This document shows, piece after piece, positions 3,001-23,361 of a DNA stretch of 64,000 bases. The notes under the pieces were generated by a model. The model was given only the letters and a program-made list of their open reading frames with translations, made no database searches and was not told where the DNA came from. Source of the stretch: Candidatus Aenigmatarchaeota archaeon (GTDB lineage Archaea > Aenigmatarchaeota > Aenigmatarchaeia > QMZP01 > JAFGSV01); the NCBI GenBank assembly GCA_016934325.1, contig JAFGSV010000019.1:1197-65196 (forward strand), written 5' to 3'. The stretch's first letter is position 1; each line of letters starts with the position of its first letter. The translations under genes were made by a program, and so were the position numbers.

Positions 3001-4349
3001 AGAGCTACTATACGATCGATGCCACCGCGGACGGTCCGGGACCCCACACGTACTGCTACAGGGTCAGGCCCGTCGATAACGCCGACAACGTCGGGAGCTG
3101 GTCGTGCGATCCCGGGCCATTGGCTTCGCCCGACTTCTCTCTGTGCAACTGCAGCACCACCGATGACGACCTGCCCATCATATCGAGCGTGGTGACGACC
3201 CCGTTGTACACGAACGCCTACCCGGCGTGGTTCAACGTGAACTGGAGCGGGTCTGACGGGTCCGGCATCAAATGCTTCTTCCCCCAGTACAAGATGATAA
3301 ACAACAGGACAGGCGCCGTCATACGTGACTGGTCAAATTGGACCGCGCTAAACAACGTGTTCAACGTCCCTGTATGGAACGGCCCCGCAAGCGTGATAAA
3401 CTGCACCGACCTGACAAGCGGCATCTTCATCCCGAATTCGGTCGTCGGCCTGGACCAGGAGAACAGGACGTACTATTTCAGGGTGGCCGCCGCCGATGAC
3501 GTGGTCGGGACCTCGAACATGGGCAACTGGGGGTATTCCGCCAACGGCACGTGGGTGGACTGGACCGCTCCCAGCGTCGTGGACCTTGCAGTCACTCGTT
3601 CGGACACCGGGGAGGTGGTGCCTGACGGTTGGGAAATTGAGTTGGGGGAGACAGCGACGTTCAGCCTGAACACATACGACTACTACACCGGCGTCAATGA
3701 ATCGTGGATTGAGATAAGGGTGGTGTCGGCCGATACAGGAGCGGTGATACAGGACTGGAGCGAATTGAGCAGGTGCAGCGGCACCTTCTGCCAGGCCGTC
3801 TCCAGCTGGAACATAGAGGTGAACGTCAGCTACCGCGGGGTTGCGCGCGACCTCGCCGGCAACGAGTACACGACAATCGATTACCTGCTGCTCGTGAGGA
3901 AGCCCAAGTTTCTGATAGCTTCCACAAGGGACCTGTTCATGCCGCTGGGATCCTACGAGTACGTGAACCTGAGGGTATCGAACCTGCAGGACCAGTATGA
4001 GTACGTGAACCTGGAAATCCAGGACGATTACATGTACAGCAAGTTCGTCGCCCTGGAAGACGGCGAGCTCAGCCTCGACCAGAGGTCGCTGAACATATCG
4101 CTTCTGCCCAATGAGATAAGGTCCCTGTCGGTGCTGGTCTACACGGCTGATGTTGGAGACTGGGTGATGACGATATATGCCAACTCCACCCTGCCCGGCC
4201 AGGAGAACGTGACCGACATGGTCCAGATAAAAATAAAGGTCGTCCACCCGGCGGAGTTCTCCGGCCTGTCGCTGTCGGCGGTCGTCATCCTGTTCTGTCT
4301 CGCGGTCATCGCCTACTTCAGGTTCGAGTCAGGCAAGGCGAGACGGTAG
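1..4349 (+). CDS. Giant cell-surface protein, 5'-truncated by the window edge (at least 1448 aa visible). Repeated beta-sandwich modules, Cys-rich segment, single C-terminal TM anchor
   Basis: ORF 42..4349 stays open in the same frame back to nt 3. FDLICDDGFGSGC at nt 3-41 echoes the internal DITCDDGAGSGCDF, so the ATG at 42 is internal. Recurrent module signature: GEWYIHVRAQDGLGNWG, GEWYLHVEVNDSADNEV, TYIFRVRAQDSVFGWG, TYCYRVRPVDNADNVGSW, TYYFRVAAADDVVG. Cys-rich block GICFNKDCGVPC...CCGVAGCGS. C-terminus PAEFSGLSLSAVVILFCLAVIAYFRFESGKARR is a hydrophobic helix plus basic tail. Confidence 0.8.
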   Translation, partial: FDLICDDGFGSGCMTTYWEFKASAASCDPNLPANYDNSGTPTLSASTAAVDGTIWINKVCFWSDDYSGNREAQVASNLFYIDMEDPTVGVTALSGFDTYFNGISYFIKGTGTISAPADDGLGSGIDGSSSEFTTDLASWNPASYSGGDCERSGISIVNGLSYTFNLRVRDNVENLGTGTPSVTYAGDTAAPTFTAPEIYAGNYYNNFFNGIPGPISIRSRPTDTGSGFDPSSCEYRITGSWNPASWDGTYCYVTGLSPGGDISVQFRGEDNLQNAGTSAIADFIYDDTGPAVDISGLSMPLAGSLTIQLTDITCDDGAGSGCDFGPPADTRMLLLYASDPGSCSNVYANYVLSPPQVLGSPGMWACAAALDHLGNPGFSSPADLQGPDAPVISSITHPTQTSWYSNNDPGFSWTASDDNGIAQYSYEFDQLPATVPDGTNLQPGNTISFTDISDGEWYIHVRAQDGLGNWGPTGHYRARIDVTPPSVDLFNPATRPWDLTDVTVTVSVSDATSGLKGYRYAFTNNVAKPSSWSSFSALSGNSDSFSETVSSDGEWYLHVEVNDSADNEVWAFSGPYQIDSIGPTIEWVKDLFWDALATDPDVAEIGDKDRVGAAWNATDWGPGPGIEQYHYQLRDSLMNVVAEGYISVAPPVKTELKKMYIIYPTNMSSELVEGETYIFRVRAQDSVFGWGGWTYSDGFLVGICFNKDCGVPCTIPGEGDGVCNGSGGCYVHDLYGLGVCPLGCGPPALSPGDERACYDYSGLTWPCGMFASLCGMSWQGATIAGDSHACTDSLSIDNCCGVAGCGSKSNTEITGSWLAYQPPALDYYGPNKPFTIALQGVNALLNPDVPVCTFIPLVDCSITRPDGSSLFVDQWINYKTTADTSLSYTPTSLDGEWNLIGCELRSNFGVNGGWVMMRDFNNYNFFVDTNDPEAWITAPPGTGPPGANVGLIFDVTWGSQDVPVGGVASGIDHFEFQYVDVTRYPLIGWENYIMNVPASQSYYTIDATADGPGPHTYCYRVRPVDNADNVGSWSCDPGPLASPDFSLCNCSTTDDDLPIISSVVTTPLYTNAYPAWFNVNWSGSDGSGIKCFFPQYKMINNRTGAVIRDWSNWTALNNVFNVPVWNGPASVINCTDLTSGIFIPNSVVGLDQENRTYYFRVAAADDVVGTSNMGNWGYSANGTWVDWTAPSVVDLAVTRSDTGEVVPDGWEIELGETATFSLNTYDYYTGVNESWIEIRVVSADTGAVIQDWSELSRCSGTFCQAVSSWNIEVNVSYRGVARDLAGNEYTTIDYLLLVRKPKFLIASTRDLFMPLGSYEYVNLRVSNLQDQYEYVNLEIQDDYMYSKFVALEDGELSLDQRSLNISLLPNEIRSLSVLVYTADVGDWVMTIYANSTLPGQENVTDMVQIKIKVVHPAEFSGLSLSAVVILFCLAVIAYFRFESGKARR

Positions 4350-4436
4350 CACAGTCCTTCCTCTGTTGTTTCCTTTGTCGTCAGGTGCCTATCCCGATGC
4401 ATGCCCTTGGTGAAGATTTCGCAGAGCGGCATGCGT

Positions 4437-5636
4437 TCAGAAATGAACCCTGTTCCTGAACGAGAAGAGTATGGCGAACGAGAGCAGGGAAAGGGCCCCC
4501 GAGATGATCAGGGGATACGAGAACCCGTACGCGAAGCCAAGGGGTCCGAAGACAAGGGAACCGAACACGGCTCCCATGATCATGACAGTGTACGCGATGC
4601 TCGTCTCCCCAGCGACCCTCTCCACCTTGAATATCTTCGAGAAGCTGACGTTGTAGCCCACCGCGGCCATGGCATCCCCTATCTCGTGCAGGACCCTGAA
4701 CATGAACGATACGGGTACTACAGGATATGCCATCATTATGTGGCCAATGCCGGAAATCACCAGGCCCGCGAAGAAGAAGACCTTGTTATTGCCTGTCTTG
4801 TCTATCCTCGAGCCGGCGATCATCGATACGACAGCGAGGACCATGACCGGTATCCCCATATATATCCCTATCCCCCCGAGGTCCAGCCCGAGCCCCTCCC
4901 TCAGGAATAGTGAGTATGAAGTGTGCTCAGCTCCCCAGTGGATGCCGAAAAGGAACAGGGGGAGCAGGAAGATGGCCGTGCTCCTCCTCAGGATGATGCT
5001 CCTGTACTCCCTCAGCGGGAATCGCCCTATCCTGGATTCGGTGATAATGTATGAGACGAGCGCCAGCAACAGGAAAGCGGCGCTGGTTATGAGCATCACG
5101 CCGCTGAAATCGAGGCTCGCCAGCATGAATCCACCGAGGACTATGCCTATCCCGAAGCCCCCCGTCGATGCGAGCTGGTATATTCCCAGTTTCCTCCCAC
5201 GGCCGCCGGGGCCCAGGGCCTTGAACGTCAGGCTCCTTATGCTGGTGTCTATCATGTTCCCGCCTAGGCCACCCGCGATGAAGAAGGGGATGATGAGCAG
5301 GAAATCCGTGTATAGGTAAAGGCCCGCGAAGAACAGGGACTCGAGCAGCATGCCAAAGATGATGACGTACTTGATGCTCAGCTTGTCGTTGATGATGCCG
5401 ATCGGAAACGAGCTGAAGAGGTTGACGATGTTGAATATGGACATCAGTATGCCGATCTGCAGCCCGTCGAACCCCAGGTCGAAAAGGTAAAGGGGCAGGA
5501 AGAAGAAGGTGAAGCTTATCAGGAGCTGCTTGAAGAAGTTCAACCCGTTCGGGATTCTTAGCGGCAACATGCGAATCAAGAAATTATTATCATGATTATT
5601 ATTAAATCGATGAGCAGGATGATGGCCGGCGTCCAT
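4437..5636 (-). CDS. Major-facilitator-type (MFS) membrane transporter
   Basis: 399-aa ORF dominated by hydrophobic helices. The loop PIGIINDKLSIKY after the second helix resembles MFS motif A (G-x-L-x-D-r-x-G-r-k). The first ~20 codons are polar, so the true start may be the internal Met of MLPLRIPNG. Confidence 0.65.
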   Translation of the reverse strand: MDAGHHPAHRFNNNHDNNFLIRMLPLRIPNGLNFFKQLLISFTFFFLPLYLFDLGFDGLQIGILMSIFNIVNLFSSFPIGIINDKLSIKYVIIFGMLLESLFFAGLYLYTDFLLIIPFFIAGGLGGNMIDTSIRSLTFKALGPGGRGRKLGIYQLASTGGFGIGIVLGGFMLASLDFSGVMLITSAAFLLLALVSYIITESRIGRFPLREYRSIILRRSTAIFLLPLFLFGIHWGAEHTSYSLFLREGLGLDLGGIGIYMGIPVMVLAVVSMIAGSRIDKTGNNKVFFFAGLVISGIGHIMMAYPVVPVSFMFRVLHEIGDAMAAVGYNVSFSKIFKVERVAGETSIAYTVMIMGAVFGSLVFGPLGFAYGFSYPLIISGALSLLSFAILFSFRNRVHF

Positions 5637-5667
5637 CTTTACTTACAGCCGTGCGCCCTCCATGGGC

Positions 5668-6294
5668 CTAACCCGGCCTGAGGGGGACGAATATGACGCC
5701 CCCGTGGCTCTCGCGCTTGAACCCGTCCTTGGACTTGCGCAGCAGGATCAGATCCTGGTGGTAGAAGCCCCCGACCGGCGCTATCAATATCCCTCCTTCC
5801 TTCAGCTGGTCCTTCCATGCCTGTAATATATCCGGGGCCGCGCAGGTGACTATTATCTTGTCATAGGGCGCCCTGGGCGGGTGGCCCTTGCTCCCGTCGC
5901 CGACAAGCACGTCGACATTCGTGCATCCGGCCTTGTCGAGGTTTCCCTTGGCGAACACGGCCAGGTCGGGCTCGACCTCGACGGTTAATACGCGGCTCAC
6001 CAGCCTAGACAGTATGGCGGCCTGGTACCCCGATCCGGCCCCGATCTCCAGCACGTTGTCGCTTTCCTTCGGCTTCAGCAGCTCCGTCATCATGGCGACC
6101 ATATGGGGGGCGGATATGGTCTGCCCGTGCCCGATCTGCAGCGGATAGTCGGAATAGGAATACACCCTGTCGCTGGCGAGGACGAACTCCTCCCTGGGCA
6201 CCTCCCTGAAGGCGAGGATAACCTTGTCGCTCTTCAGGTATCCCTCCCCCTGCAGCTTGCTGATCAGCATCTCCCTGTCCTCGTTGATACCCAT
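5668..6294 (-). CDS. pcm: Protein-L-isoaspartate O-methyltransferase
   Basis: GHGQTISAPHMVAMMTELL, SAM motif VLEIGAGSGYQAAILSRLV, later APYDKIIVTCAAPDI and GGILIAPVG. Typical PIMT order and length (208 aa). Confidence 0.9.
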   Translation of the reverse strand: MGINEDREMLISKLQGEGYLKSDKVILAFREVPREEFVLASDRVYSYSDYPLQIGHGQTISAPHMVAMMTELLKPKESDNVLEIGAGSGYQAAILSRLVSRVLTVEVEPDLAVFAKGNLDKAGCTNVDVLVGDGSKGHPPRAPYDKIIVTCAAPDILQAWKDQLKEGGILIAPVGGFYHQDLILLRKSKDGFKRESHGGVIFVPLRPG

Positions 6295-6378
6295 GAATAA
6301 TATGTCGTTCCGCTGGTTAAAGTATTTGAGCGGGTTTTCTATGCTTCATTTTTTAGCTTTGCCGGGCAATTTGTTAAC

Positions 6379-7038
6379 ATGAGAATGTACGATTACTGCA
6401 TACTGGACTTCTCCGACCCGGCCGCCGTCTCGGATAAGGCGGCAAAGCTCGGCTGGGGCGGGCTGTGCGTGCTGGACGCTGAAAGCCGCGAGGGGTCGAA
6501 AGAGAAGGGGAAGCCATGCATCGATGTCGCCAAGGGCACCATCATCGAGGCCGACAAGGCGGCAACGGTAAGGCGGGAGGCTCTGAAGAGGAGGAGGGTC
6601 TTCGAGGTCGTTGCCGTCAGGGGGCTGAGCGACGAGGCGAACAGGGCGGCCGTCGAGGCGCCCGCCGCCGACATCCTGCTGCCCGGCGATGATTCGAGGG
6701 TCGATTACGTCATGGTCAAGCTGGCGAAGAAGAACAGCGTGTCCATAGGGTTCGAGTTCAGGCAGCTGCTCCAGTCGAGCGGGGAGGACAGGAGCAGGAT
6801 CTTCTCCAGGATGCGGGCCACGGCGAAGCTGGTGCGCAAGTTCGGGGCCTCCTTCGTCATAACGAGCGGGGCCATGTCCGAATGGGACTTGAGGGCCCCA
6901 TCGGAGCTCATCGCCTTCGGCAGGGTCCTCGGATTCGAGACCCCCGGCATAACGAAGGCCATCTCCGCCTGGCTGATTGAAAGGAACAGGAAGAGGCTGG
7001 GAGGCAAATGGGTCATGCCTGGGGTGGAGGTCGAATAG
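6379..7038 (+). CDS. rnp3: RNase P protein component 3 (Rpp30 family)
   Basis: 219 aa with Rpp30-like pattern (VDYVMVKLAKKNSVSIGFEF...RMRATAKLVRKFGASFVITSGAMSEWDLRAPSELIAFGRVLGF). It lies immediately upstream of a Pop5-like gene, the usual archaeal pairing. Confidence 0.7.
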   Translation: MRMYDYCILDFSDPAAVSDKAAKLGWGGLCVLDAESREGSKEKGKPCIDVAKGTIIEADKAATVRREALKRRRVFEVVAVRGLSDEANRAAVEAPAADILLPGDDSRVDYVMVKLAKKNSVSIGFEFRQLLQSSGEDRSRIFSRMRATAKLVRKFGASFVITSGAMSEWDLRAPSELIAFGRVLGFETPGITKAISAWLIERNRKRLGGKWVMPGVEVE

Positions 7039-7076
7039 GTGCCAGGGATGGAATATATGAGTAAGAGGCGATTGTC

Positions 7077-7418
7077 GTGAAGCTCAAGAGGCTCCCGAGC
7101 ATGCGGGAGAAGAGGCACTACGTGACTTTCAGGCTGCACAGCAATAATCCCGTCATGTACAGCGAGATGAAGGGCGCCGTCATGAACTCCGTCCTGAACT
7201 GGCTGGGGGAGGGAGGCTTCTCAGCTGCCAGGTGCAGGATCATAAAGAACCTGTGGGACCACAGGAGGCAGGTCGGCATGATGGAATGCTCGCCTGCTTC
7301 CGTGGACGACATCAAGCTGGCCCTCGCCCTGGTCCACCAGATAGGCGACGAGCGGGTAATCTTCCAGGTCACCCGGGTCTCAGGCACGATCAAGTCCGGG
7401 AAGGCAAAGATGAAATAG
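7077..7418 (+). CDS. rnp2: RNase P protein component 2 (Pop5 family)
   Basis: 113 aa, GTG start. LKRLPSMREKRHYVTFRL at the N-terminus and VSGTIKSGK near the C-terminus match the Pop5 pattern (LPPxxRxxxRYIxFEI ... SGTI). Confidence 0.7.
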   Translation: MKLKRLPSMREKRHYVTFRLHSNNPVMYSEMKGAVMNSVLNWLGEGGFSAARCRIIKNLWDHRRQVGMMECSPASVDDIKLALALVHQIGDERVIFQVTRVSGTIKSGKAKMK

Positions 7419-7510
7419 ACTTAATATAATAGTAATTATTATGGAATATTATTCCGATAACACATTTATTACTGATTTTAAACCCAGGAAGTGGGAGTAT
7501 AAGCGAAAAC

Positions 7511-7519
7511 TATTTAAAG
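7511..7519 (+). promoter_or_regulatory. Candidate TATA box (TATTTAAAG) with A-rich BRE-like upstream bases for ORF 7541
   Basis: gcgaaaacTATTTAAAGatttc is centred about 26 nt upstream of the ATG at 7541. This implies a leaderless or near-leaderless transcript. Confidence 0.4.
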
Positions 7520-7540
7520 ATTTCTACTGAAGAATAGAGC

Positions 7541-7990
7541 ATGTCAGACGGAATTTTCGATTTCGGTCCAATAAAGTTGGATATGCTGGGAAATCCGAAC
7601 CACGGTAAAAGTTACGGCTTCATATATGATTCAGAAAAAGCTATCAATTTTGGTAGCTGGATCGAAGAAGGTACCTATAGGAATGCACCTGCTGATGTAG
7701 CTGAAATGTTGAACAGGAAGTACGGAGCGGAAGTCTTCCAGAAAAGGTGCTCATTCATCATCGTGCATTATGAAAACGAAATAGATATCGTTAATGACAT
7801 TTTTACCGATTCCGCTACGGAAGAATCGGCAGAAGAAGGGGTTGTTACCTTTGGATATGACATGAAAGGCCCAAACGGAGGTAGGTGGATAGACGCAAGA
7901 ACGCTTTCCCCAATCGTGGGAATTGCCTCCAAGCCATTAGACAGGGAATACCGGCATGTAATAGAATTGGTCAGTCCGAATTCTGAATGA
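7541..7990 (+). CDS. Hypothetical protein (149 aa), orphan in an AT-rich islet
   Basis: Clean ORF with balanced composition, preceded by a TATA-like box. No motif recognised. Confidence 0.5.
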   Translation: MSDGIFDFGPIKLDMLGNPNHGKSYGFIYDSEKAINFGSWIEEGTYRNAPADVAEMLNRKYGAEVFQKRCSFIIVHYENEIDIVNDIFTDSATEESAEEGVVTFGYDMKGPNGGRWIDARTLSPIVGIASKPLDREYRHVIELVSPNSE

Positions 7991-8044
7991 CTACCGTCAG
8001 CTCATTTGTTCTTTTTATAAAAAGAAGCTGATAATTGCTACTAT

Positions 8045-8707
8045 ATGAGATTGGACCTGCACATTCATACGTATTATTCGGATGACGCGATAAGGAGCCC
8101 CGAGGAGATGGTCGCGGGGGCCAAAGCCAGGGGGCTTGACGGCCTAGCTATCACCGAGCACAATAACACGGAGAGCTGGAAGAGGGCCATCGAGGCGGGG
8201 AAGAGGAGCGGCCTGGGCATAATACTCGGAGAGGAGATCAAGGTCTTGCACGAAGGCGAGAAGATCGGCGAGGTGATTGCGCTCTTCATAAACCATGAGA
8301 TAAGATTCCGCGAGTTCCTAGAGGTCAAGGACGAGATCAGGAGCCAAGGGGGGCTGATGATAGCCGCCCACCCTTTCGACTCGTTCAGGAACCGATTCAA
8401 GATGCTCGACGAATTCAGGAGATACTTCGATGCCGTCGAGGCGTTCAATGCGCGCGCCGTGATGCACAGGTTCAACAGGAAAGCCGAGGAGTTCGCCCTG
8501 AAGAACGGGATGGCGATGACTGGGGGCTCGGATGCTCACTGCGTCAGGGAGCTGGGAAAGGGTCAGACCATCACCGACATAGACAATGTTAAAGATCTCT
8601 ACGGCGCGATCAGGAAGAAGAAGACGCAAGTGTGGGGGAAGGAATCAAGCCCTATCATCCATGCGGTGACGACGTTCGCGAAGCTGGGCATTTGGAAATC
8701 CAAATAA
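8045..8707 (+). CDS. PHP-domain metal-dependent phosphoesterase
   Basis: N-terminal MRLDLHIHTYYSDDA plus GLDGLAITEHNN, AAHPF and GGSDAHC. These are the His/Asp metal ligand motifs of the PHP fold. Confidence 0.8.
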   Translation: MRLDLHIHTYYSDDAIRSPEEMVAGAKARGLDGLAITEHNNTESWKRAIEAGKRSGLGIILGEEIKVLHEGEKIGEVIALFINHEIRFREFLEVKDEIRSQGGLMIAAHPFDSFRNRFKMLDEFRRYFDAVEAFNARAVMHRFNRKAEEFALKNGMAMTGGSDAHCVRELGKGQTITDIDNVKDLYGAIRKKKTQVWGKESSPIIHAVTTFAKLGIWKSK

Positions 8708-8741
8708 TTAATCGTGTGAGATTTCTTTGGGTTCTATTCAA

Positions 8742-9590
8742 CTAAGCAGCTTCCAACCAGGTCATCTGGAAATCTCCCATATCGATTATCAACGGTCTGC
8801 TTTTACCTTTCCCGTCTTCTGAAATAATCCTTTCCGTCCTCAGTGCGGTTTCCGCGATCTCGCGCCTGCATGAGGGAAGGAAGACCCTCCTGTACGGGGC
8901 CTTGCTCTCATCAACGTATTGGGCCTCGCCGACTACACCAACGATATCCTCAGTCGCTCTTCTGACATCATCCATTCCGAATCCGCAGACATTGGATATC
9001 TCCTTGTCCGAGAACTTCGGGTACCAGTTATCGCCATACGCATTTCTCAGCTCTTCGGATCTCTCCAGGATATACTTCAGCACGGGAAGCGATGCTGTAT
9101 CGAATTCCCCCTCGAAGGTGTGGGTCTCGCTGTCTATCGCCCTTTCCACAGCATCCGAGACGCATTCGGGAATGTAGAGCCCGCATGTCCTCTTCTTTTT
9201 CATCCATTTTCTGGTGTAAAACTTGAGCTCATTCCCGTCTTTCACCGTCCACGTGCGCTTTCCGCGTCCCTCCCATTTCAGTTCTTTCTCAAGGACGGCC
9301 TTCTGCAACTCGCCCATGTACTTTAATTTCGTCCAGTCGATTGAATCCACATGCTTGTCGAGATGGAATGAATCGAATTTCTCGATAAATGTCCCAACGG
9401 GACCATAAAGATACTTCCGGCAGAGCCTCAAGGCCTCGTCTCTACCGATACCCGTCTTGTATTCAAGGAATTCTATGCCGCTTCTTCCGGCCCTGAATCG
9501 GTTGATTTCCCCTTTAGAAGGGACATCGAGGTTTGAAACCAGACAGGCCGCATCGTCTGATATGGAGAAAGAATACTGTATAACTGCCAT
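8742..9590 (-). CDS. Hypothetical protein (282 aa)
   Basis: Long ORF with ordinary soluble-protein composition. No motif recognised. Lies downstream of the PadR-like gene on the same strand. Confidence 0.5.
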   Translation of the reverse strand: MAVIQYSFSISDDAACLVSNLDVPSKGEINRFRAGRSGIEFLEYKTGIGRDEALRLCRKYLYGPVGTFIEKFDSFHLDKHVDSIDWTKLKYMGELQKAVLEKELKWEGRGKRTWTVKDGNELKFYTRKWMKKKRTCGLYIPECVSDAVERAIDSETHTFEGEFDTASLPVLKYILERSEELRNAYGDNWYPKFSDKEISNVCGFGMDDVRRATEDIVGVVGEAQYVDESKAPYRRVFLPSCRREIAETALRTERIISEDGKGKSRPLIIDMGDFQMTWLEAA

Positions 9591-15448: not shown

Positions 15449-16189
15449 TTGATGGGTCTGAAAATGCCATTAAAAGAAAGTCCCATTTTAGCAGAATTAA
15501 TTGGTATTTTATTAGGCGATGGATCAATCGGTATTTACAAATGCAAGAGAAAATGTGGTAATTTTTCTTTACAGCATAAAATGCAGATTACCCTGAATTC
15601 TATCGATGATAAAGATTATATTATTTTCTTAGAAAAAATGATCTTTCGACTTTTTGGTGTAAAACCCAAGATAACCTACAGAAGTGGGAGAACTTGCGAT
15701 TTACGCCTTTTCAAGAAGGAAATAATTCAATTTTTAATCAATGAAATTGGTATGGTGATGTCTCCAAAATGGAAAAATGCAAAAATCCCTGATTATTACT
15801 TGCATACAGATTTGGAAATTAAAATTATACGAGGGTATTTCGATACTGATGGAAGCGTTGTTGTAACAAATAATAATGGAACATTGTACCCTAGATTAGA
15901 AATGAAAATATGCCCATCACCAATGCAAAGCCATATTATTGATATTCTAAAAAGAATGGAATTTAGATTTGGTGTTTATTCCATTGGGAAAGGGAAAGTA
16001 AGAATACAATTGAATGGTAAGCAACAATTGGAAAAATGGATAAAAGAAATTGGTTTTAGTAATAATAAACATATAATCAAGGCAAAACTATTCTTTTCTT
16101 CAAAACCGATAGCGGGGGATGGATTTGAACCATCGACCTTTGGGTCTCCCTTTGAACCTGAAGTCCAATATGAGCCATTCGCGAGTTAA
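15449..16189 (+). CDS. Free-standing LAGLIDADG homing endonuclease (double-motif) in an AT-rich islet
   Basis: Motifs LAELIGILLGDGSIG and IIRGYFDTDGSVV. TTG/ATG start at 15449/15452. The last ~27 codons (PIAGDGFEPSTFG...) are read-through into the antisense strand of the tRNA gene, so the functional C-terminus is probably near ...KAKLFF. Confidence 0.7.
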   Translation: MMGLKMPLKESPILAELIGILLGDGSIGIYKCKRKCGNFSLQHKMQITLNSIDDKDYIIFLEKMIFRLFGVKPKITYRSGRTCDLRLFKKEIIQFLINEIGMVMSPKWKNAKIPDYYLHTDLEIKIIRGYFDTDGSVVVTNNNGTLYPRLEMKICPSPMQSHIIDILKRMEFRFGVYSIGKGKVRIQLNGKQQLEKWIKEIGFSNNKHIIKAKLFFSSKPIAGDGFEPSTFGSPFEPEVQYEPFAS

Positions 16190-16341: not shown

Positions 16342-17028
16342 ATGGGAGAAAAAATCATTGCAGGCGTTGATGAAGCGGGTAGGGGATGCGTCATAGGTCC
16401 GCTCGTTGTCGCCGGAATATCGATTCCTCACGACAAGGAAGAAGAGCTCAAGAGGATTGGCGTTAAGGATTCCAAGGAATTGCCTCACACTAAGAGGGAG
16501 AAGCTGGCCAAGCAGATAGAGGAGATTGCGAAGGACGTCATCGTCTTCAAGGTCGGGTCCTGCAAGATAGACACCTTCAGGAAGCAGGGCGTCAGCATGA
16601 ACAGGATCGAGGCGATGAAGTTCTCTGACATAATAAGGATGCTGAATCCCCATATGGCATATATTGACTGCCCGGACACGAACATAAACAAGTTCCATCT
16701 TTTCATGAACAAGCTGGTCGGAGGGGGCCCGGAGCTGATAGTGAAGCACAAGGCCGACAGGGACTATCCGGTGGTTTCAGCTGCCAGCATAATAGCGAAG
16801 GTCGAGAGGGAGCTCGAGATATCCAAGCTAAAGGAGGAGTACGGTGATTTCGGGACCGGGTACACGAGCGACGAGAGGACGATAGAATGGCTTAGGGGAT
16901 GGCTGAAGGAGAACAAGGAATTCCCCGAGCATCTCGTGAGGAGGAGCTGGATTACGTCATCCGTACTTAAAGGGGAACAAGAGCAGACAAATCTCGTGGG
17001 ATGGTTCAGGGATTTGTTAAAGAAATAA
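16342..17028 (+). CDS. rnhB: Ribonuclease HII
   Basis: GVDEAGRGCVIGPLVVAG catalytic motif, DSKEL, ADRDYPVVSAASIIAKVERE. 228 aa, typical archaeal RNase HII. Confidence 0.9.
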   Translation: MGEKIIAGVDEAGRGCVIGPLVVAGISIPHDKEEELKRIGVKDSKELPHTKREKLAKQIEEIAKDVIVFKVGSCKIDTFRKQGVSMNRIEAMKFSDIIRMLNPHMAYIDCPDTNINKFHLFMNKLVGGGPELIVKHKADRDYPVVSAASIIAKVERELEISKLKEEYGDFGTGYTSDERTIEWLRGWLKENKEFPEHLVRRSWITSSVLKGEQEQTNLVGWFRDLLKK

Positions 17029-17050
17029 GCCGGGAAAACATGTCCAAGTC

Positions 17051-17437
17051 TTATGGTGGTGTGTCCGTAGACCTAATTTCAAGTCTATATAATTTCTGAT
17101 TGAGTTGTTCTATCCTTAAAACATCTCCTGGCCCAAGTTCTTCATGCTTTCTATACCAGTTTGTAACGCTCATCTTATCGGAATCTCTTTCTGATCGCCT
17201 GGGAGAACATATATAGGCACCTGCCTTCTGGTCTCCAACACTAGTATCACTCGAAGCTGCCGCCGTTACCCATGCCTCTACTTTTCCATCGTCAGTATTA
17301 AATACGAATCGTTTCTTATATCCGGGGAAAAAATCTCTATGTTTTCTAGGGAAAACGATGATTCCATACCTTCTCCAAGATGGCTCGTCCCCTCTTGCTT
17401 GTGGGAGCTCAAGCTCTATGACTCCTGAATCGGTCAT
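17051..17437 (-). CDS. Small protein, possible B3/EcoRII-N-like DNA-binding pseudobarrel (tentative)
   Basis: Pattern IIVFPRKHRDFFPGYKKRFVFNTDDGKVEAWV...GAYI...TNWYRKHEELGPGDVLRIEQ...YRLEI resembles B3-type barrels (fP..f......l.D..G..w.v......g.yi...W..f....l..GD.v.f). The call rests on pattern only. Confidence 0.4.
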   Translation of the reverse strand: MTDSGVIELELPQARGDEPSWRRYGIIVFPRKHRDFFPGYKKRFVFNTDDGKVEAWVTAAASSDTSVGDQKAGAYICSPRRSERDSDKMSVTNWYRKHEELGPGDVLRIEQLNQKLYRLEIRSTDTPP

Positions 17438-17484
17438 GATTTAGCATATGACAGAAAACTTTATAAGTTTTCTTTTTAACTACT

Positions 17485-20076
17485 TTAGGGTTGTGTAATG
17501 GAATGGGTTCGCTCCTTCAACTGTGAAAATGCATTATCCAAGGGCCCGATTCTCTTCCCGGAATATCGGACATCTTTGCCATAAGAAGGTTGCGTGAATT
17601 TTGCCCCAAGATATATTCTTGATAGCCCGCCACTTGCGGCATAAGTTCTTGGCGTATGATTGTACATGACGAATTCTCCTTCAGGAACAGTATATCCTGA
17701 CTCATGATCCTTCACTTTCTCGGCTGCGACAAGGTATACCTTTTGAATCTGTCGCCTTTGACCATTCACTGTGGCACGGCCCGTGAACAGGTCAGAAAGA
17801 ACAGGATTTAAATTATACGAGGCAAGGACTTCATTGAAAGCGTGGAATATTTTGTTGTTTGTGCGGTAATGCGGTAATGTTGCTATGAAAAAGCCCTCGG
17901 GCACCAGCAAACCGTTGGTATCAATGAGTGTGTCCTCCACCTCCCTTTGAAATTTACTATCACCGTCATATCTTTGGGCAAGATACATCAGAGAATAGGA
18001 AGCTGTCACTAAATCGAACATCCCATTCCCAAAAAGCATATGCGCCTCTGCCATGTTGCCCTTCACATACTGCATCTTTCTTAAGCCACTCTTTACATGT
18101 TCCAGTTCTAATCCCTCGCATCTCTTCTTCGCTTCCTGTAGCATCCTCTCGTCTATATCCAGATTTACAATAGGTCTGCCGAGAGCTCTCGCCAGATTAG
18201 CGGACCCACATCCATAATCGAGTATTCTTCCGAATTTTCTTCCCCTCAGCTCTTCAAGTCCCTTAATCACCATAGTTACAAATCCAGCAGTTTTCGAGGG
18301 AGGCAGGTGACTATCATCCTCAATGGTGTAACTTCTTCGCATATTAGCAAATTTATCAGCGAACCGACCTTCTCCTGAACATGCCCTTTTGATTTCTTTG
18401 CTGCCTGCACCATAAAGCTCGACACTGCTTATCATGCCGCTCATGAATCTTTGTAATCTTCTGTCCTTGCTCTTTCTTGGAAGGCTGCCTAGTCCCTTAT
18501 TCGCTGCTTCTGTATGACTATCAGTATTCATCAATTTTTCTTCAACTTCATCCAATCTAAGCCCTTCATACAGTTTGTCTTTTAGAATACGGTCTTTTGC
18601 GATTCTCATATTATATGCGTCCAAGTCTATCGTTCCAGGAAGCCAAGTCGGCTTGAATTCAACCGCGTATTCGGTTTCCAGTGAATCCTTAGCTTTTATC
18701 ATGTAATCAGATAATTCAGAACTATTAGCCAAAACCGTATGGATATGGACCGGAGCAATTTGACCCTTCCTGTATCCCCTTCCAACAATTTCTCCATAAT
18801 CGCAGGGTGTGATTGCAGGCTCAAGAATGATTATATGTGAAGGCCTGTCATATGTTGTAAGAGGTATGCCCTCTCCCATTGTCTGTATGGTGTTGGCAAG
18901 TGCCCGTAGTTTTCCTTCGCGATACTGCTTGGCCATTTCTACCCTGTCCTCAATTCTATTTACGGTCCCGTCAATTCTTCCAACTCTTCTAGGCATTACC
19001 CTTTCAAGCCTTCTCGCAATTTCTTTGGTAACACCATCACGCAAATAAGAATATACCAAAATTTGTGATTCGCTGTCACCTTTGGCTATAGCATCCGCCA
19101 TATTCTCCAATGCATCATATTTTGATGCCAAAAGAGTTCTTCCGAGGAGCGGTATTTTCACCCCCGTGGGCATGTCCCCGTCTCTCCAGTATTTCATGTA
19201 CCTGTCTTTGTACTTGTCCTCCATATCAACGGAAACCGTGTCTTCACATAATTCGGGCAGATTGAATATCTCCTTCAGATCGTCCCTTGTGAAGGTCAAA
19301 AGCTTTCCCTGCATTTTCAAGTCCCTGAAAACAGCCGGATTCGAATTATAGTTAAAGGTACTAAGAGTATACCTGTCAGGGTCCAAGAGATGCAGCGCAA
19401 CACCAGCGTCTTTCAAACGATTTGGTATGGGATAAGCACTAAGAAGAACAACATATTTGTCCATGGTAGCTCTAATAATTTCATCGATAATCCTGGTCTT
19501 GTTTGATTTTGGATTTTTCAATAATTGGCATTCATCGAATACAAGTATATCTGGACCTTTGCTACTTTGGCACCATGATAAGAATCTTGAAAAGTATGAA
19601 TTATCAGCCCTTGCTTCCGGTCTCGTATAGCCGAATTTATGATAATTGACCGCTGCCATATCAAAGTCCGAGTCCAAAAGGGAAAGGTCGCTTCTGCCCA
19701 TAACGGGAACAACTTGCATAGGATCCATTCCCATAGCTTCACGGTAGCTGTTCTGCTCCTCCTCGGTCCATGCAGTCTGAATGGCCTGATTTGGTGCCCA
19801 GACCGCTGTCCTTGCAGGTCTTCCGATTTCTTCGGAAAGCAGTGAATGCAGCAGGTTTGTGACAAACGTTTTTCCTGATGATGTCGCATCCGCACAAAGA
19901 ATTCTCTTGTTTCCATTGTTCAAAGCCTCATATACCCTCCTGGTTTGATGTGCGGTGGGTGTGATTTCTCCTGTACTCCTTTTGCATAGGCCAGACCAGA
20001 AATCCACAAATTTGTTGCACTCAGCCAATGCTGCCTGCCTGGTTTCTGTTGAAATTGCGTTTTTCTGTCCCATCAT
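17485..20076 (-). CDS. SNF2-family SF2 helicase fused to a C-terminal class-I SAM-dependent methyltransferase
   Basis: Helicase motifs are I CADATSSGKT, Ia VWAPNQAI, II VFDECQLLKN, III LLSAYPIPNR, V TMGEGIPL and VI GRGYRKGQ. The C-terminal MTase has motif I ILDYGCGSANLARAL, an acidic post-I NLDID, FDLVTASYSLMYL and LVPEGFF. No (D/N/S)PP(Y/F/W) DNA-MTase motif was seen. Confidence 0.8.
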   Translation of the reverse strand: MMGQKNAISTETRQAALAECNKFVDFWSGLCKRSTGEITPTAHQTRRVYEALNNGNKRILCADATSSGKTFVTNLLHSLLSEEIGRPARTAVWAPNQAIQTAWTEEEQNSYREAMGMDPMQVVPVMGRSDLSLLDSDFDMAAVNYHKFGYTRPEARADNSYFSRFLSWCQSSKGPDILVFDECQLLKNPKSNKTRIIDEIIRATMDKYVVLLSAYPIPNRLKDAGVALHLLDPDRYTLSTFNYNSNPAVFRDLKMQGKLLTFTRDDLKEIFNLPELCEDTVSVDMEDKYKDRYMKYWRDGDMPTGVKIPLLGRTLLASKYDALENMADAIAKGDSESQILVYSYLRDGVTKEIARRLERVMPRRVGRIDGTVNRIEDRVEMAKQYREGKLRALANTIQTMGEGIPLTTYDRPSHIIILEPAITPCDYGEIVGRGYRKGQIAPVHIHTVLANSSELSDYMIKAKDSLETEYAVEFKPTWLPGTIDLDAYNMRIAKDRILKDKLYEGLRLDEVEEKLMNTDSHTEAANKGLGSLPRKSKDRRLQRFMSGMISSVELYGAGSKEIKRACSGEGRFADKFANMRRSYTIEDDSHLPPSKTAGFVTMVIKGLEELRGRKFGRILDYGCGSANLARALGRPIVNLDIDERMLQEAKKRCEGLELEHVKSGLRKMQYVKGNMAEAHMLFGNGMFDLVTASYSLMYLAQRYDGDSKFQREVEDTLIDTNGLLVPEGFFIATLPHYRTNNKIFHAFNEVLASYNLNPVLSDLFTGRATVNGQRRQIQKVYLVAAEKVKDHESGYTVPEGEFVMYNHTPRTYAASGGLSRIYLGAKFTQPSYGKDVRYSGKRIGPLDNAFSQLKERTHSITQP

Positions 20077-20084
20077 GCACCACC

Positions 20085-21422
20085 TTACAAACCTGCCCCA
20101 AGTCGCTCTAAATCTTTAAGATAGTTTCTCGCTTGCTGGGGGTTTCGCATCCTTTCTATAACGTCCATATGATACCTCGAAAGAATTCTTCCCGCAGTTT
20201 CCGATTCGACGTTAAGTTCAGCAAGGGACATTTCCAATGCTTCCGAGTCCTCGAATCCATTGGAAGGATCATTAGATGATTCATCCAGTCTTATCACGCC
20301 AAGATTCATTTTTGGCATTGTATAAACCAATCGTGCTAAGGCATCAGGGCTGGTCCTGCTTTTTTGTCCATTCAGTTTCTCATAAATTAATCTGCCAGCT
20401 GTTCCAGCCATTTGCATGCTTTCAGTATCTGTCGAATACCTTGAAGCTATTCGGTAAGCGTCAATTGTACCCGCTGAATCTGGTGATGCCTTCAACAATT
20501 CTTCAGAAGTAAAAGGTTTTATACCGTAGTTTAACTTTTTAGCAATAATTATTTTTTGTTTAAGTTCTTCCAAATCGATGCCCATTGCTATTGCTGCTGC
20601 ATTAAGGACTTTTTCATTTCTTAAGTAAACCATTGCACTTTTTCCATTATACCCAAAAACATCAGCTATAGAATCCATAGTGCCTTCATTGGAAGCATAT
20701 CGGGTAACCATTTGGACTTTATCATCAAAAGGTAGCCTTTTATTACTATGTTTTTCATCTAAATCTTCGATTCTTTGCCTTAATTCAGACACTGTTATAC
20801 CAATTGATTCTGCTGCGGAGGAAAGAATGTCGTCGTTTCTTAAATATTTTAAACAAGAAGTTCTACTACATCCAAAATCACGAGCTATAGAAGCCACAGT
20901 GCCTTCATTGGAAGCATATCGGGTAACCATTTGGACTTTATCATCAAAAGGTAGCCTTTTTCGATTTGTAAAATTTCCCCCTACCCTCATCATTTTTTGT
21001 TTTAATTCAGAAACTGTTATACCCATTGATTCGGCTGCAGCGGTAATAATATCTTCTTTTTTCAAAGAATATCCTAAAATCCATTCACGACATCCAAAAT
21101 CATCAGCGACAGAATCCATAGTGCCTTCATTGGAAGCATATCGGGTAACCATTTGGACTTTATCATCAAAAGGTGTATCTTTATTATGCTTATTATAAAT
21201 CCTTGCATTAATTATTCCTTGTTTCAATTCAGGCACGGTTATACCCATAGAATTAGCCGCAGCGTATAGAATTTCATTGTTGCTTAGACAATTTGTAACT
21301 GATTTTTTATGGCATCGAAAATCACGAGCTAAAGAAGACAAAGAGCCTTTATTTTTAGCATATCGGGTAACTATTTGGACTTTATCTTTGAATGAAATTC
21401 TATTTATACTTGGCATATTCAC
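20085..21422 (-). CDS. Protein made of four tandem ~73-aa double-HTH-like modules plus a unique C-terminal region
   Basis: The module (P/S)F(D/K)DKVQ(M/I)VTRYA(S/K)N(E/K)G(T/S)..S.A.DF(G/R)C...(N/D).(I/V)L.AAA.(S/A)(M/I)GI(T/D)(V/L).EL(K/R)Q occurs four times. It resembles transposase/terminase-type HTHs. The stop lies 8 nt before the helicase start codon. Confidence 0.7.
   Translation of the reverse strand: MNMPSINRISFKDKVQIVTRYAKNKGSLSSLARDFRCHKKSVTNCLSNNEILYAAANSMGITVPELKQGIINARIYNKHNKDTPFDDKVQMVTRYASNEGTMDSVADDFGCREWILGYSLKKEDIITAAAESMGITVSELKQKMMRVGGNFTNRKRLPFDDKVQMVTRYASNEGTVASIARDFGCSRTSCLKYLRNDDILSSAAESIGITVSELRQRIEDLDEKHSNKRLPFDDKVQMVTRYASNEGTMDSIADVFGYNGKSAMVYLRNEKVLNAAAIAMGIDLEELKQKIIIAKKLNYGIKPFTSEELLKASPDSAGTIDAYRIASRYSTDTESMQMAGTAGRLIYEKLNGQKSRTSPDALARLVYTMPKMNLGVIRLDESSNDPSNGFEDSEALEMSLAELNVESETAGRILSRYHMDVIERMRNPQQARNYLKDLERLGAGL
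20670..21175. repeat. Intragenic tandem repeat: about 60-bp near-identical cores spaced 219 and 222 bp apart (three copies, plus a diverged fourth near 21358)
   Basis: The string gtgccttcattggaagcatatcgggtaaccatttggactttatcatcaaaaggt occurs starting at 20680, 20899 and 21121. A diverged copy (gcatatcgggtaactatttggactttatc) starts at about 21358. Confidence 0.85.
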
Positions 21423-21483
21423 ACCTATTTACTACTAAAATATAACTAATAATGTTTAAATAGCTTATTTTGAGGTTCTCATA

Positions 21484-22815
21484 GTGATACAAATAAAAAT
21501 AGCCACAAACATAAATTGCTTTATGCAGAGAACTTATTCCAGTCACGTTAAGGTCGGGAACCATGTCATGGTCAAAGGATGGATAGCCAAGGTCAGGGAC
21601 CTGGGCGGTCTCAAGTTCTTCCTGCTCAGGGACAGGACCGGTACCATACAGGTAACGGCGAAGAAGGGCAAGGTTTCAGATGCGATCATCAAGAAGTTCG
21701 GCGAGCTCGGCAGGGAGGACTGCGTCTCGGTCGAGGGGAAGGTTACCGCAGCGAAGCAAGCTCCGGGAGGCAGGGAGCTCGTCCCGGAAAAGCTCGAGAT
21801 AGTCTCCAAGTCCGAAACGAAGCTTCCCATAGACGTGTTCGGCAAGATCGAATCCGGGAAGGACAAGAGGTTCGACTTCAGGTTCCTTGACATCAGGGAT
21901 CCCAAGCTGCAGGCCATATTCAGGATCAAGGCTGTAGCTATTAACAGCATCCGTGATTATTTCGTCAAGTCCGGATTCATAGAAGTGCATACGCCTGTGA
22001 TACAGGCAGCGGGAGCGGAAGGGGGAGCAACGATGTTCCCGGTGATATATTACAACCGCGAAGCCTTCCTTCGGCAGAGCCCGCAGCTCTACAAGCAGAT
22101 GCTGATGGCATCGGGCATGGACGGGGTCTTCGAGATCGGCCAGGCCTTCAGGGCCGAGAAGTTCCATACATCCAGGCATGTGTCCGAGTTCCTTTCCGTC
22201 GATTTCGAGCAGGCATGGATCGAGAGCGAGGAGGACATAATGAATACCCTCGAAAGGATGGTCGCCCATTCGCTCAGGGAGATAGCGAAAGATTGCAAGG
22301 ACGAGCTGGAGACGCTCGGCAGGAAGGTCAAGGTCCCCGAGCTTCCGCTGAGAAGGGTTACCTATGATGATATGGTGAAGACGCTGAGCAAGGCAGGCAC
22401 CCCTCTGGAATGGGGGGACGACATAGAGGACGCCCAGGAGAGGAAGATGGGCGAGATACTGGCGAAGAAGGGCATAGAATGGTACTTCATCACGAAGTTC
22501 CCCTCGAAGATAAAGCCGTTCTACATAATGCTCGACGGCGAGGTGAGCAGGGGCCTGGACCTGGACTACAAGGGCCTCGAGATGGCGAGCGGCGGCCAGA
22601 GGGAGCATAGGTACGACATCCTGAAGAAGGTCATGAAGCAGAAGGGCCTCGACCCGCACAAGTTCGAGTTCTATCTGGAGCCTTTCAGGTACGGGATGCC
22701 TCCGCACGGGGGGATAGGCTTCGGCGTCGAGAGGATGGTCGAGAAGATCCTCGACCTGCCCGACATAAAGGAGGCAATCCTCTTCCCAAGGACTCCGGAG
22801 AGGCTCGTGCCTTAA
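21484..22815 (+). CDS. aspS: Aspartyl-tRNA synthetase, archaeal type
   Basis: OB N-domain VMVKGWIAKVRDLGGLKFFLLRDRTGTIQV. Class II motifs FRAEKFHTSRHVSEFLSVDFE and GGIGFGVERMV. The probable true start is the ATG at 21523 (MQRTYSSHV), since the track start is GTG. Confidence 0.9.
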   Translation: MIQIKIATNINCFMQRTYSSHVKVGNHVMVKGWIAKVRDLGGLKFFLLRDRTGTIQVTAKKGKVSDAIIKKFGELGREDCVSVEGKVTAAKQAPGGRELVPEKLEIVSKSETKLPIDVFGKIESGKDKRFDFRFLDIRDPKLQAIFRIKAVAINSIRDYFVKSGFIEVHTPVIQAAGAEGGATMFPVIYYNREAFLRQSPQLYKQMLMASGMDGVFEIGQAFRAEKFHTSRHVSEFLSVDFEQAWIESEEDIMNTLERMVAHSLREIAKDCKDELETLGRKVKVPELPLRRVTYDDMVKTLSKAGTPLEWGDDIEDAQERKMGEILAKKGIEWYFITKFPSKIKPFYIMLDGEVSRGLDLDYKGLEMASGGQREHRYDILKKVMKQKGLDPHKFEFYLEPFRYGMPPHGGIGFGVERMVEKILDLPDIKEAILFPRTPERLVP

Positions 22816-22839: not shown

Positions 22840-23361
22840 TCAAGCAATTTCGGATACGTAAATATTCCACATCTCTCTCCATAAAATATTCGGATGGTTT
22901 GCGCCGGTCAGAAGATTTGCAGTTCTTCTTCCATAAACTGATTCTGAAATCTTGAATGGAATATTGCCAAATGGCTGATAACCCTGGATCATCTCACCCA
23001 ACATGTTAGAGTGGTTGTTCAAAACGTGTTCAATAAAAGCGATCGACTTCTCACCGTTTTCAATCAGTGAAGCGCGAATTATTTTCCCTCCCATGAATGA
23101 TGTATAATCGTCGCAGAGGTATGAAAATACAACCTCATTGGATTGATAAGTCCTGAGCAATTTCTCAGGTCTATCGCTTATTGGTTTGAACCTTTTGTAT
23201 GGTCCCATACTTTCATGAATTTCTTTATCATCACGAAAGAAGCTATCCAGGGCATCAATCTGTTCCCTTCCCGATTCGGTAGATATTGATGCCGGATAAT
23301 CGGTTATTACATATCCGATGCCATCGAATTCCTCCATAGGTTCGTAACCCATATTCATCAA
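22840..23361 (-). CDS. Hypothetical protein (173 aa), AT-rich, 14 nt downstream of propeller paralogue 1
   Basis: Clean ORF, soluble composition, no motif recognised. Confidence 0.45.
   Translation of the reverse strand: MMNMGYEPMEEFDGIGYVITDYPASISTESGREQIDALDSFFRDDKEIHESMGPYKRFKPISDRPEKLLRTYQSNEVVFSYLCDDYTSFMGGKIIRASLIENGEKSIAFIEHVLNNHSNMLGEMIQGYQPFGNIPFKISESVYGRRTANLLTGANHPNILWREMWNIYVSEIA

Follow-up and report, generated by a model that had tools for sequence, protein, structure and literature searches.

We analysed a 64,000-nucleotide stretch of contig JAFGSV010000019.1 from a Candidatus Aenigmatarchaeota archaeon (the window) and found that it carries, between the housekeeping genes rnhB and aspS, an inserted AT-rich island of three genes. 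These encode an array of helix-turn-helix (HTH) repeats fused to a new domain that we call X (gene 1), an SNF2-type ATPase fused to a class-I S-adenosylmethionine (SAM) methyltransferase (gene 2, the helicase-methyltransferase) and a small protein predicted to fold as a B3-like DNA-binding pseudobarrel (gene 3, the B3 protein). X, the helicase-methyltransferase and the B3 protein recur together, as a conserved set of genes, in archaea that are only distantly related. We rate the island as a new variant of the helicase-plus-methylase conflict systems, with a gene set that is undescribed in the literature searched. Its genes probably methylate chosen DNA without cutting it, a function that we infer from sequence.

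The island is a foreign insertion between rnhB and aspS

The segment is an insertion of foreign composition. The window's own genome (G000) is a metagenome-assembled genome (MAG) of 1.24 Mb, 79 % complete, with a GC content of 54.1 %. The GC content of positions 17029-21522 is 41.2 %, within the lowest 1.9 % of the 4.4-kb windows of this genome. Codon usage is foreign as well. The GC content at third codon positions (GC3) is 0.27 in gene 1, 0.43 in gene 2 and 0.34 in gene 3 compared to a median of 0.77 for the long open reading frames (ORFs) of the genome, and the synonymous-codon likelihood of the three genes lies in the bottom 0.5-6 % of those ORFs. The neighbours of the island are archaeal housekeeping genes encoding an ATP-dependent DNA ligase (lig), RNase HII (rnhB) and a class II aspartyl-tRNA synthetase (AspRS, aspS), all three with codon usage typical for the genome.

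Empty sites are found in four of the four relatives compared, one from the same genus (G001) and three from the same family (G003, G004 and G007). In these genomes rnhB and aspS are directly adjacent, with a spacer of about 30-45 nt. The alignment of the empty sites also places the most likely start of aspS at ATG 21523 and not at GTG 21484, the start of the longest ORF. An ancestral A-rich aspS leader of about 35 nt (AAATAAAAATAGCC..., AAATAAAAA...) survives on the aspS side from position ~21489, and the foreign DNA therefore stops at ~21488.

The island holds three ORFs, all intact and all on the minus strand (Table 1), with gaps of 8 nt between genes 1 and 2 and of 47 nt between genes 2 and 3. 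A first-pass annotation, made from the letters of this DNA alone, had described a segment richer in AT than its flanks with three co-oriented genes, the first two 8 nt apart, and our data agree on each of these points. It had also rightly placed the island between rnhB and aspS; the aspS start that it used, the GTG, and the island end that went with it are replaced by the positions given above. Two outcomes had been named there as speaking against a mobile module, namely conservation of the trio at this locus across the lineage with native codon usage, or genes that never co-occur elsewhere. Neither is what we found, since the island is absent from the relatives, its codons are foreign and the trio is present at other loci, as described below.

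The gene set recurs in distantly related archaea

X, the helicase-methyltransferase and the B3 protein occur together in about 11 loci of distantly related archaea. A B3 protein gene adjoins the helicase-methyltransferase gene in the window and in L015, L016, L018, L022, L023, L024, L061, L062, L063 and G060. The X profile matches ORFs on which it had not been trained, directly upstream of the helicase gene, in L022, L025, L061 and L062, and in L024, L063 and L064 X is fused to the helicase N-terminus. It also matches the C-terminus of a 674-aa HNH_repeat protein in G060. Three loci, namely those of the window, L015 and G060, have an array fused to X, and in G292 a class-I methyltransferase is directly joined to an HNH_repeat array. 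The array-X, X-helicase and G292 fusions suggest a model in which the arrays direct the enzyme to DNA and X serves to dock them.

Two layouts can be distinguished. Type B (the window, L015, L016 and G060) has tandem arrays of HTH or HNH_repeat units, which differ by locus: CENP-B-like HTH in the window, HNH_repeat in L015 and G060, and HTH_17 together with HNH_repeat in L016. Type A, found in Methanosarcinales MAGs and metagenome contigs, has in place of the array a coiled-coil protein of about 560-770 aa with a C-terminal winged helix (read by eye), and B3 proteins of about 300 aa with an N-terminal coiled coil. While the repeat type varies, X, the helicase-methyltransferase and B3 remain constant across loci.

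The housekeeping genes that flank the other loci are only 33-52 % identical to those of G000, and the hosts are therefore distant. Everywhere it was found, the module has a GC content of 32-45 %, and in G170 and G226, genomes of higher GC content, it again forms an island of AT-rich DNA. The unit of three to four genes recurs alone in differing chromosomal contexts.

The distribution of the module is patchy. Searching 5.8 billion clustered proteins returned only five full-length homologues of gene 2, at 31-36 % identity; further relatives came from genome and metagenome scans and from a phylum sample of 301 genomes. In this sample the module is present in 12 genomes, none of them in the window's own family, and no helicase-methyltransferase was found among the 40 relatives searched. 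The first-pass annotation had noted that helicase-methylase proteins occur on plasmids and phages, for which we have no direct support here: no full-length relative was found in 2.9 million IMG/VR viral contigs, in 50,697 phage records or among 72,556 plasmid records, the latter two being collections that may hold few archaeal elements.

In L096 (G226, 720-4555) a helicase of 468 aa, an HTH array of 452 aa and a methyltransferase of 360 aa are encoded by three separate consecutive genes, an arrangement that is a natural split of the window's fusion. Downstream of the helicase-methyltransferase gene in L091 (G280, 3960-8810) lie five genes of unknown kind, three of which encode proteins whose ends weakly match the C-terminal half of X; they could be alternative specificity or adaptor subunits. 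The type A loci L018, L061 and L062 have a longer neighbourhood in common, with an APH-family kinase gene, many unknown co-oriented genes and, on the opposite strand, a MazE/AbrB-like gene of 290-330 aa. This neighbourhood, which in L018 lies on a 413-kb contig, could belong to a larger element or system. Finally, in the L016 copy an IS240-family transposase gene (7192-7869) sits between the HTH-repeat gene and the B3 gene.

Gene 2 joins an SNF2-type motor to a generic methyltransferase

By its motifs and profile similarity, the motor of gene 2 belongs to the SNF2 family of superfamily 2 (SF2) ATPases. The helicase motifs GKT, DECQ, SAYP and GRGYRKGQ are invariant in an alignment of gene 2 with its five homologues. 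Compared to the Protein Data Bank (PDB), the helicase profile finds the Sulfolobus SNF2 protein 1z63 at 1e-14, followed by Rad5, DDM1, INO80 and RapA. The helicase part also matches phrog_62, a profile of 1,881 positions annotated as DNA helicase, at 3.9e-30.

The C-terminal domain has the features of class-I SAM methyltransferases. It matches Methyltransf_25 (35.5 bits, cut-off 27) and Methyltransf_11 (35.5 bits, cut-off 21.2), and D620, G622, G624, N638 and D640 are invariant in the alignment. Both the ATPase and the SAM motifs of gene 2 are intact in the alignment. The nearest sequence neighbours of the methyltransferase in the PDB are YcgJ, Bud23, the cap guanine-N7 methyltransferase and UbiG. 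Neither (D/N/S)PP(Y/F/W) nor PC/ENV motifs are present in gene 2 or its five homologues, and gene 2 matches no DNA-methylase family of Pfam or NCBIfam. The helicase-methylase of the first-pass annotation therefore holds as an SNF2-type helicase joined to a class-I methyltransferase; by its motifs and family matches, the latter is not a recognisable DNA methylase.

Gene 1 is a tandem-HTH array fused to domain X

As the first-pass annotation had it, gene 1 encodes a protein with multiple HTH units. A protein repeat alignment gives four units of about 74 aa with 45-64 % mutual identity, reflected in the DNA as four copies of 214 nt with a period of 222 bp. The repeats match CENP-B_N (4.6e-14), HTH_28 and other transposase-type HTH models of Pfam, as well as phrog_8446, the DNA-binding repeat region of phage HNH endonucleases. 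The most variable stretch of the repeat is where the HTH recognition helix is expected, with positions judged by eye from the alignment.

The last ~160 residues of gene 1 form a separate all-alpha domain in the AlphaFold2 (AF2) model, at a mean confidence (pLDDT) of 71. The best match of this model in the PDB has an E-value of only 0.87, and no structural neighbour was found there. Domain X is a new domain and a constant partner of the helicase-methyltransferase.

Gene 3 has a predicted B3-like fold

Gene 3 has no match in Pfam (B3 included), NCBIfam, PHROG or PADLOC. In a Foldseek search of the PDB with its AF2 model (pLDDT 84), ranks 1-24 are all B3-type DNA-binding pseudobarrels, among them At1g16640, BfiI-C, TEM1, VRN1, FUS3 and LlaJI.R1-N. 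Template modelling (TM) scores are 0.46-0.60, and the probability reaches 1.0 with E-values that are modest (best 1.8e-3). No structural match to the model was found in BFVD. On the predicted structure, gene 3 folds as a B3-like DNA-binding pseudobarrel of the B3 / EcoRII-N / BfiI-C kind, and the first-pass guess of such a barrel is borne out at that level.

The profile of this B3 family finds 303 representative proteins. At least 10 of the top 150 representatives carry restriction-type nuclease domains (HSDR_N, MTES_1575/DUF559 or PLDc_2/RE_NgoFVII), and these fusions tie the domain to restriction-like contexts. Gene 3 itself is the bare barrel, with no nuclease domain. The loops of the family (FFPGYK, GDPxAG) are unusually conserved, which could reflect binding of one common ligand instead of a variety of DNA sequences.

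We considered the long B3 proteins as a possible place for a nuclease and rejected them. Five homologues of about 300 aa consist of a coiled coil and a small domain with no conserved catalytic motif; their N-terminal ~190 aa have no conserved acidic or lysine motif and no Pfam match.

A sister clade has a glycosylase-like partner

A tree of 19 helicase-methyltransferases splits into two clades with support of 100/100, and every B3-partnered locus falls in one of them. There the window, G060 and L015 form a group with support of 100/99. The neighbouring gene in the sister clade encodes a divergent protein resembling methylpurine-DNA glycosylase (PF02245, 47-64 bits, above the cut-off). None of the loci examined has both a B3 and such an AAG-like partner.

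PF02245 is present in 86 of the 301 phylum genomes, with canonical copies scoring about 92-244 bits. Five divergent whole-gene copies were found: L092 (G083), L093 (G170), L113 (G218), L096 (G226) and L112 (G292). All five adjoin a methyltransferase gene, four of them a helicase-methyltransferase and one an array-methyltransferase, and within the sample the divergent copies were found solely beside SNF2-methyltransferase or repeat-array-methyltransferase genes.

The divergent copies lack the equivalent of the catalytic Glu125, reading ETAAY, ETWPY, ETAAF, ETGAY or, in one copy, TATDAY compared to the canonical ETEAY, in a register set by alignment to human AAG (E125Q structure 1EWN). They also lack the loop that carries His136 in human AAG. 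With neither the catalytic Glu nor the loop, these proteins probably bind alkylpurines and do not excise them.

Comparison with known systems

No named system matches the island, as the first-pass annotation had noted. PADLOC has no match for genes 1 and 3, and NCBIfam gives nothing specific. We found no account of an SNF2-methyltransferase partnered by B3 or AAG-like proteins in the literature searched.

Among known systems, the closest in logic are CglI and NgoAVII, which also combine a B3-like pseudobarrel, an SF2 helicase-like ATPase that translocates on double-stranded DNA and a methyltransferase in a compact mobile set (PMC4267653, PMC4267654, PMC5861437). Of their defining features, all but the B3 fold fail here. 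In CglI and NgoAVII one protein combines the B3 domain with a PLD nuclease, whereas the 128-aa B3 protein of the island has no nuclease; their motor is of the DEAD-Z1 kind, whereas that of the island is SNF2/Rad54-like with no Z1 match; and they have a separate, bona fide DNA methyltransferase, whereas the island has a generic class-I domain fused to the helicase. The island has in addition the adaptor domain X and the tandem HTH array.

Type ISP enzymes (LlaGI, LlaBIII) consist of one polypeptide with an N-terminal Mrr-family nuclease, an SF2 motor, an N6-adenine methyltransferase (NPPY) and a C-terminal target-recognition domain. Gene 2 resembles them in having an SF2 motor followed by a methyltransferase in a single polypeptide and, as proposed below, in acting on a specific DNA site. 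Unlike these enzymes, the island has no nuclease match, its helicase core begins at about residue 40 and both NPPY and the C-terminal target-recognition domain are missing; recognition would instead be handed to the separate array and B3 proteins.

DISARM (the SNF2 helicase DrmD with the methylases DrmMI/MII) and BREX also pair a helicase with a methylase within a multi-gene defence system, and some BREX types have no dedicated nuclease. The first-pass annotation had suggested a logic of this kind. Membership fails because the partner genes are absent: DrmA, DrmB (DUF1998) and DrmC of DISARM are missing from the island, as are PglZ, BrxC and PglX of BREX (PADLOC, Pfam), and the likeness is confined to generic SNF2 and Rossmann cores. 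The plant B3 transcription factors, EcoRII-N, BfiI-C and LlaJI.R1-N have the predicted fold in common with gene 3, with no sequence-level Pfam match. The AAG/MPG glycosylases (PF02245) resemble only the partners in the sister clade, and those are without the Glu125 equivalent.

Proposed function and alternative explanations

Our best explanation is that the island is a horizontally acquired, self-contained module of three components that acts as a mobile, nuclease-free machine for ATP-driven, targeted DNA methylation with a role in genetic conflict. To this package as a whole we give an even chance. The four-unit HTH array would read a long DNA site and domain X would dock the array onto the motor-methyltransferase. 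ATP hydrolysis would then move or remodel the complex on duplex DNA, and the methyltransferase would methylate the DNA so targeted. The B3-like subunit would also contact DNA and might read the methylated product. DNA is the likely substrate because every partner binds DNA and because of the glycosylase-like neighbour in the sister clade. As the module is patchy, transferred and fast-evolving and its arrays are swappable, conflict with foreign DNA would be its most likely role, either as a defence-like unit or as a selfish unit resembling restriction-modification without its own nuclease. The defence or anti-defence role put forward in the first-pass annotation may hold, judging by a distribution that is patchy and marked by transfer and by arrays that can be swapped.

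A number of observations weigh against this explanation. PADLOC calls no system on the island and returns weak domain-level matches only (DrmD to the SNF2 core at 2.6e-10, DpdE, mad2 and ZorD), there are no known defence genes beside it, and no nuclease or other effector was found within it using Pfam and NCBIfam. The single-sequence Pfam scores for SNF2 and Helicase_C stay under the gathering cut-offs (17.2 compared to 24.9 for SNF2-rel_dom), and gene 2 is therefore a divergent SNF2 member. The methyltransferase belongs to the generic Methyltransf_11/25 group, which includes small-molecule, RNA and protein methyltransferases; with this class and no DNA-methylase motifs, DNA is a putative substrate. 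The AAG-like link belongs to the sister clade, whose proteins are 23-29 % identical to that of the window, and not to the window's clade, and PF02245 has no match in the window or in G000, a genome that is 79 % complete. Finally, locus counts are small and some loci are mutually related.

Alternatively, the module may be a nuclease-free 'writer-motor-reader' of lesion-like purine methylation, in which arrays aim an SNF2-driven methyltransferase and a dedicated, non-catalytic reader recognises the mark. We hold this reading tentatively and with some doubt; it would make the module categorically different from the helicase-plus-methylase conflict systems. Swappable HTH or HNH_repeat arrays would target the methyltransferase, which would install a mark of the alkylpurine type and has guanine-N7 methyltransferases among its sequence neighbours. 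For the window's clade the reader would be the B3-like barrel, for the sister clade the AAG-like protein without the glutamate. Replication or transcription of invader DNA would be blocked as a result, or a new archaeal form of epigenetic control would be at work.

It is also conceivable that the module has been domesticated by its hosts for regulation or chromatin, the array and B3 protein binding chromosomal sites while the SNF2 motor remodels nucleoid proteins or RNA polymerase in the manner of RapA and the methyltransferase modifies protein or RNA. The methyltransferase class, typical of protein, RNA and small-molecule enzymes, would fit such a role, as would RapA and the chromatin remodelers among the helicase matches, the lack of a nuclease and the place of the island among housekeeping genes. 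We regard it as unlikely, given an extremely patchy distribution with transfer between distant archaea, a foreign composition, arrays that are exchanged between loci and a sister clade tied to a fold that binds DNA lesions, all of them unexpected for a core regulator. Another view would see the island as leftover cargo of a decayed integrated plasmid or virus, originally serving element maintenance or anti-restriction through self-methylation of incoming element DNA, similar to DarB-like helicase-methylases of phage P1. The AT-rich composition, the match of the helicase part to phrog_62, the transposase within the L016 copy and the longer neighbourhood with APH kinase and MazE/AbrB-like genes at some type A loci are all compatible with this. 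We think it quite unlikely, considering that no full-length relatives turned up in the viral contigs or in the phage and plasmid records (the latter two perhaps with few archaeal elements), that the island has no integrase, att site or other element genes and that the small unit recurs alone in different chromosomal contexts.

We consider it improbable that the module is a true ATP-dependent restriction-modification system, akin to CglI/NgoAVII or Type ISP, with a nuclease that goes unrecognised in X, in the long B3 N-terminus or in trans. Its parts list of B3-like reader, SF2 motor and methyltransferase is that of CglI and NgoAVII (PMC4267653, PMC4267654), and the nuclease fusions in at least 10 of 150 B3-family representatives also speak for it. 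On the other side, the B3 protein in the window is a barrel only, X is all-helical with no structural match, the N-terminal part of the long B3 proteins has no conserved acidic or lysine motif and the methyltransferase has no DNA-methylase motifs.

Restriction-modification and CRISPR systems are reported to be scarce in DPANN archaea (PMC12988326), and little is therefore known of how these tiny symbionts deal with foreign DNA. The module is a compact transferable set that lies outside PADLOC, the system-level families of Pfam and the literature searched, and it pairs a motor of the chromatin-remodeler type with a methyltransferase class not known to act on DNA, modular arrays and no nuclease. 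If DNA is what the methyltransferase marks, and if its B3-like or AAG-like partners recognise the mark, the module would discriminate or silence DNA in a new way and would be a natural case of DNA modification targeted by arrays. A regulatory role would still leave X and the conserved B3 family (303 representatives) as new and testable protein families.

Junctions, putative promoters and neighbouring insertions

The features of the island and its borders are listed in Table 1.

Table 1. Positions of the island, its genes and domains, and its borders within the window
Feature	Position	Strand	Basis or remark
rnhB (RNase HII)	16342-17028	+	Left neighbour of the island
Left junction AAATAAGCC	17023-17031	+	Holds the rnhB stop codon
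AT-rich insert, ~4.46 kb	17029-21488		Between the rnhB stop codon and the kept aspS leader; empty sites, GC, codon usage
Gene 3, 128 aa, stand-alone B3-like DNA-binding pseudobarrel (predicted)	17051-17437	-	AF2 model, Foldseek
47-nt spacer	17438-17484	-	TATA-like CTTATAAAG upstream of gene 3
Gene 2, 863 aa, SNF2-type ATPase + class-I SAM methyltransferase fusion	17485-20076	-	
Class-I methyltransferase domain, residues ~600-790	17707-18279	-	SAM motif I LDYGCGS, acidic post-I NLD
SNF2/Rad54-like helicase core, residues ~40-460	18697-19959	-	Motifs GKT, DECQ, SAYP, GRGYRKGQ
Gene 1, 445 aa, tandem-HTH array fused to domain X	20085-21422	-	Pfam CENP-B_N, HTH_28; phrog_8446
Domain X, residues ~286-445	20088-20567	-	Profile matches at other loci; AF2 model
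Four HTH repeat units, residues ~10-304	20511-21395	-	Tandem repeat, period 222 bp
Divergent intergenic region	21423-21522		TATA-like TTATATTT at ~21437-21444, minus strand, upstream of gene 1; then aspS leader

In agreement with the first-pass annotation, we found no integrase, nuclease or convincing flanking repeat. The AAATAA of the left junction recurs at the right junction (21491-21496), a 6-nt microhomology compatible with chance and unconvincing as a target-site duplication (TSD). A candidate terminal inverted repeat, pairing 14 of 19 positions between 17023-17041 and 21452-21470, is no better than many chance pairs and was likewise rejected. No recombinase gene was found in the island or at its borders (Pfam, NCBIfam, PHROG), neither the att sites nor the TSD of an integrative element are in evidence, and ARAGORN and Rfam identify no tRNA or non-coding RNA in or beside the island that could have served as an integration target.

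Two TATA-like sequences may drive expression of the island. From its position, TTATATTT is a putative promoter of gene 1, and CTTATAAAG, in the spacer, may be a promoter of gene 3's own. Scans of the island for bacterial promoters and terminators gave background levels, with models not relevant to archaea.

The island is not the only AT-rich insertion in this region. Between the ligase gene and rnhB, positions 15449-16189 hold a free-standing gene for a double-LAGLIDADG endonuclease (32 % GC, GC3 0.28). This gene is missing from G001 of the same genus, where the lig-rnhB gap is 228 nt, and a partial copy with 68 % identity occupies the same place in G004. Just past aspS, an orphan minus-strand gene at 22840-23361 encodes 173 aa with no family matches; it has a GC content of 40 % and a GC3 of 0.41, has no homologue in the G001 locus examined and may represent a third small insertion.

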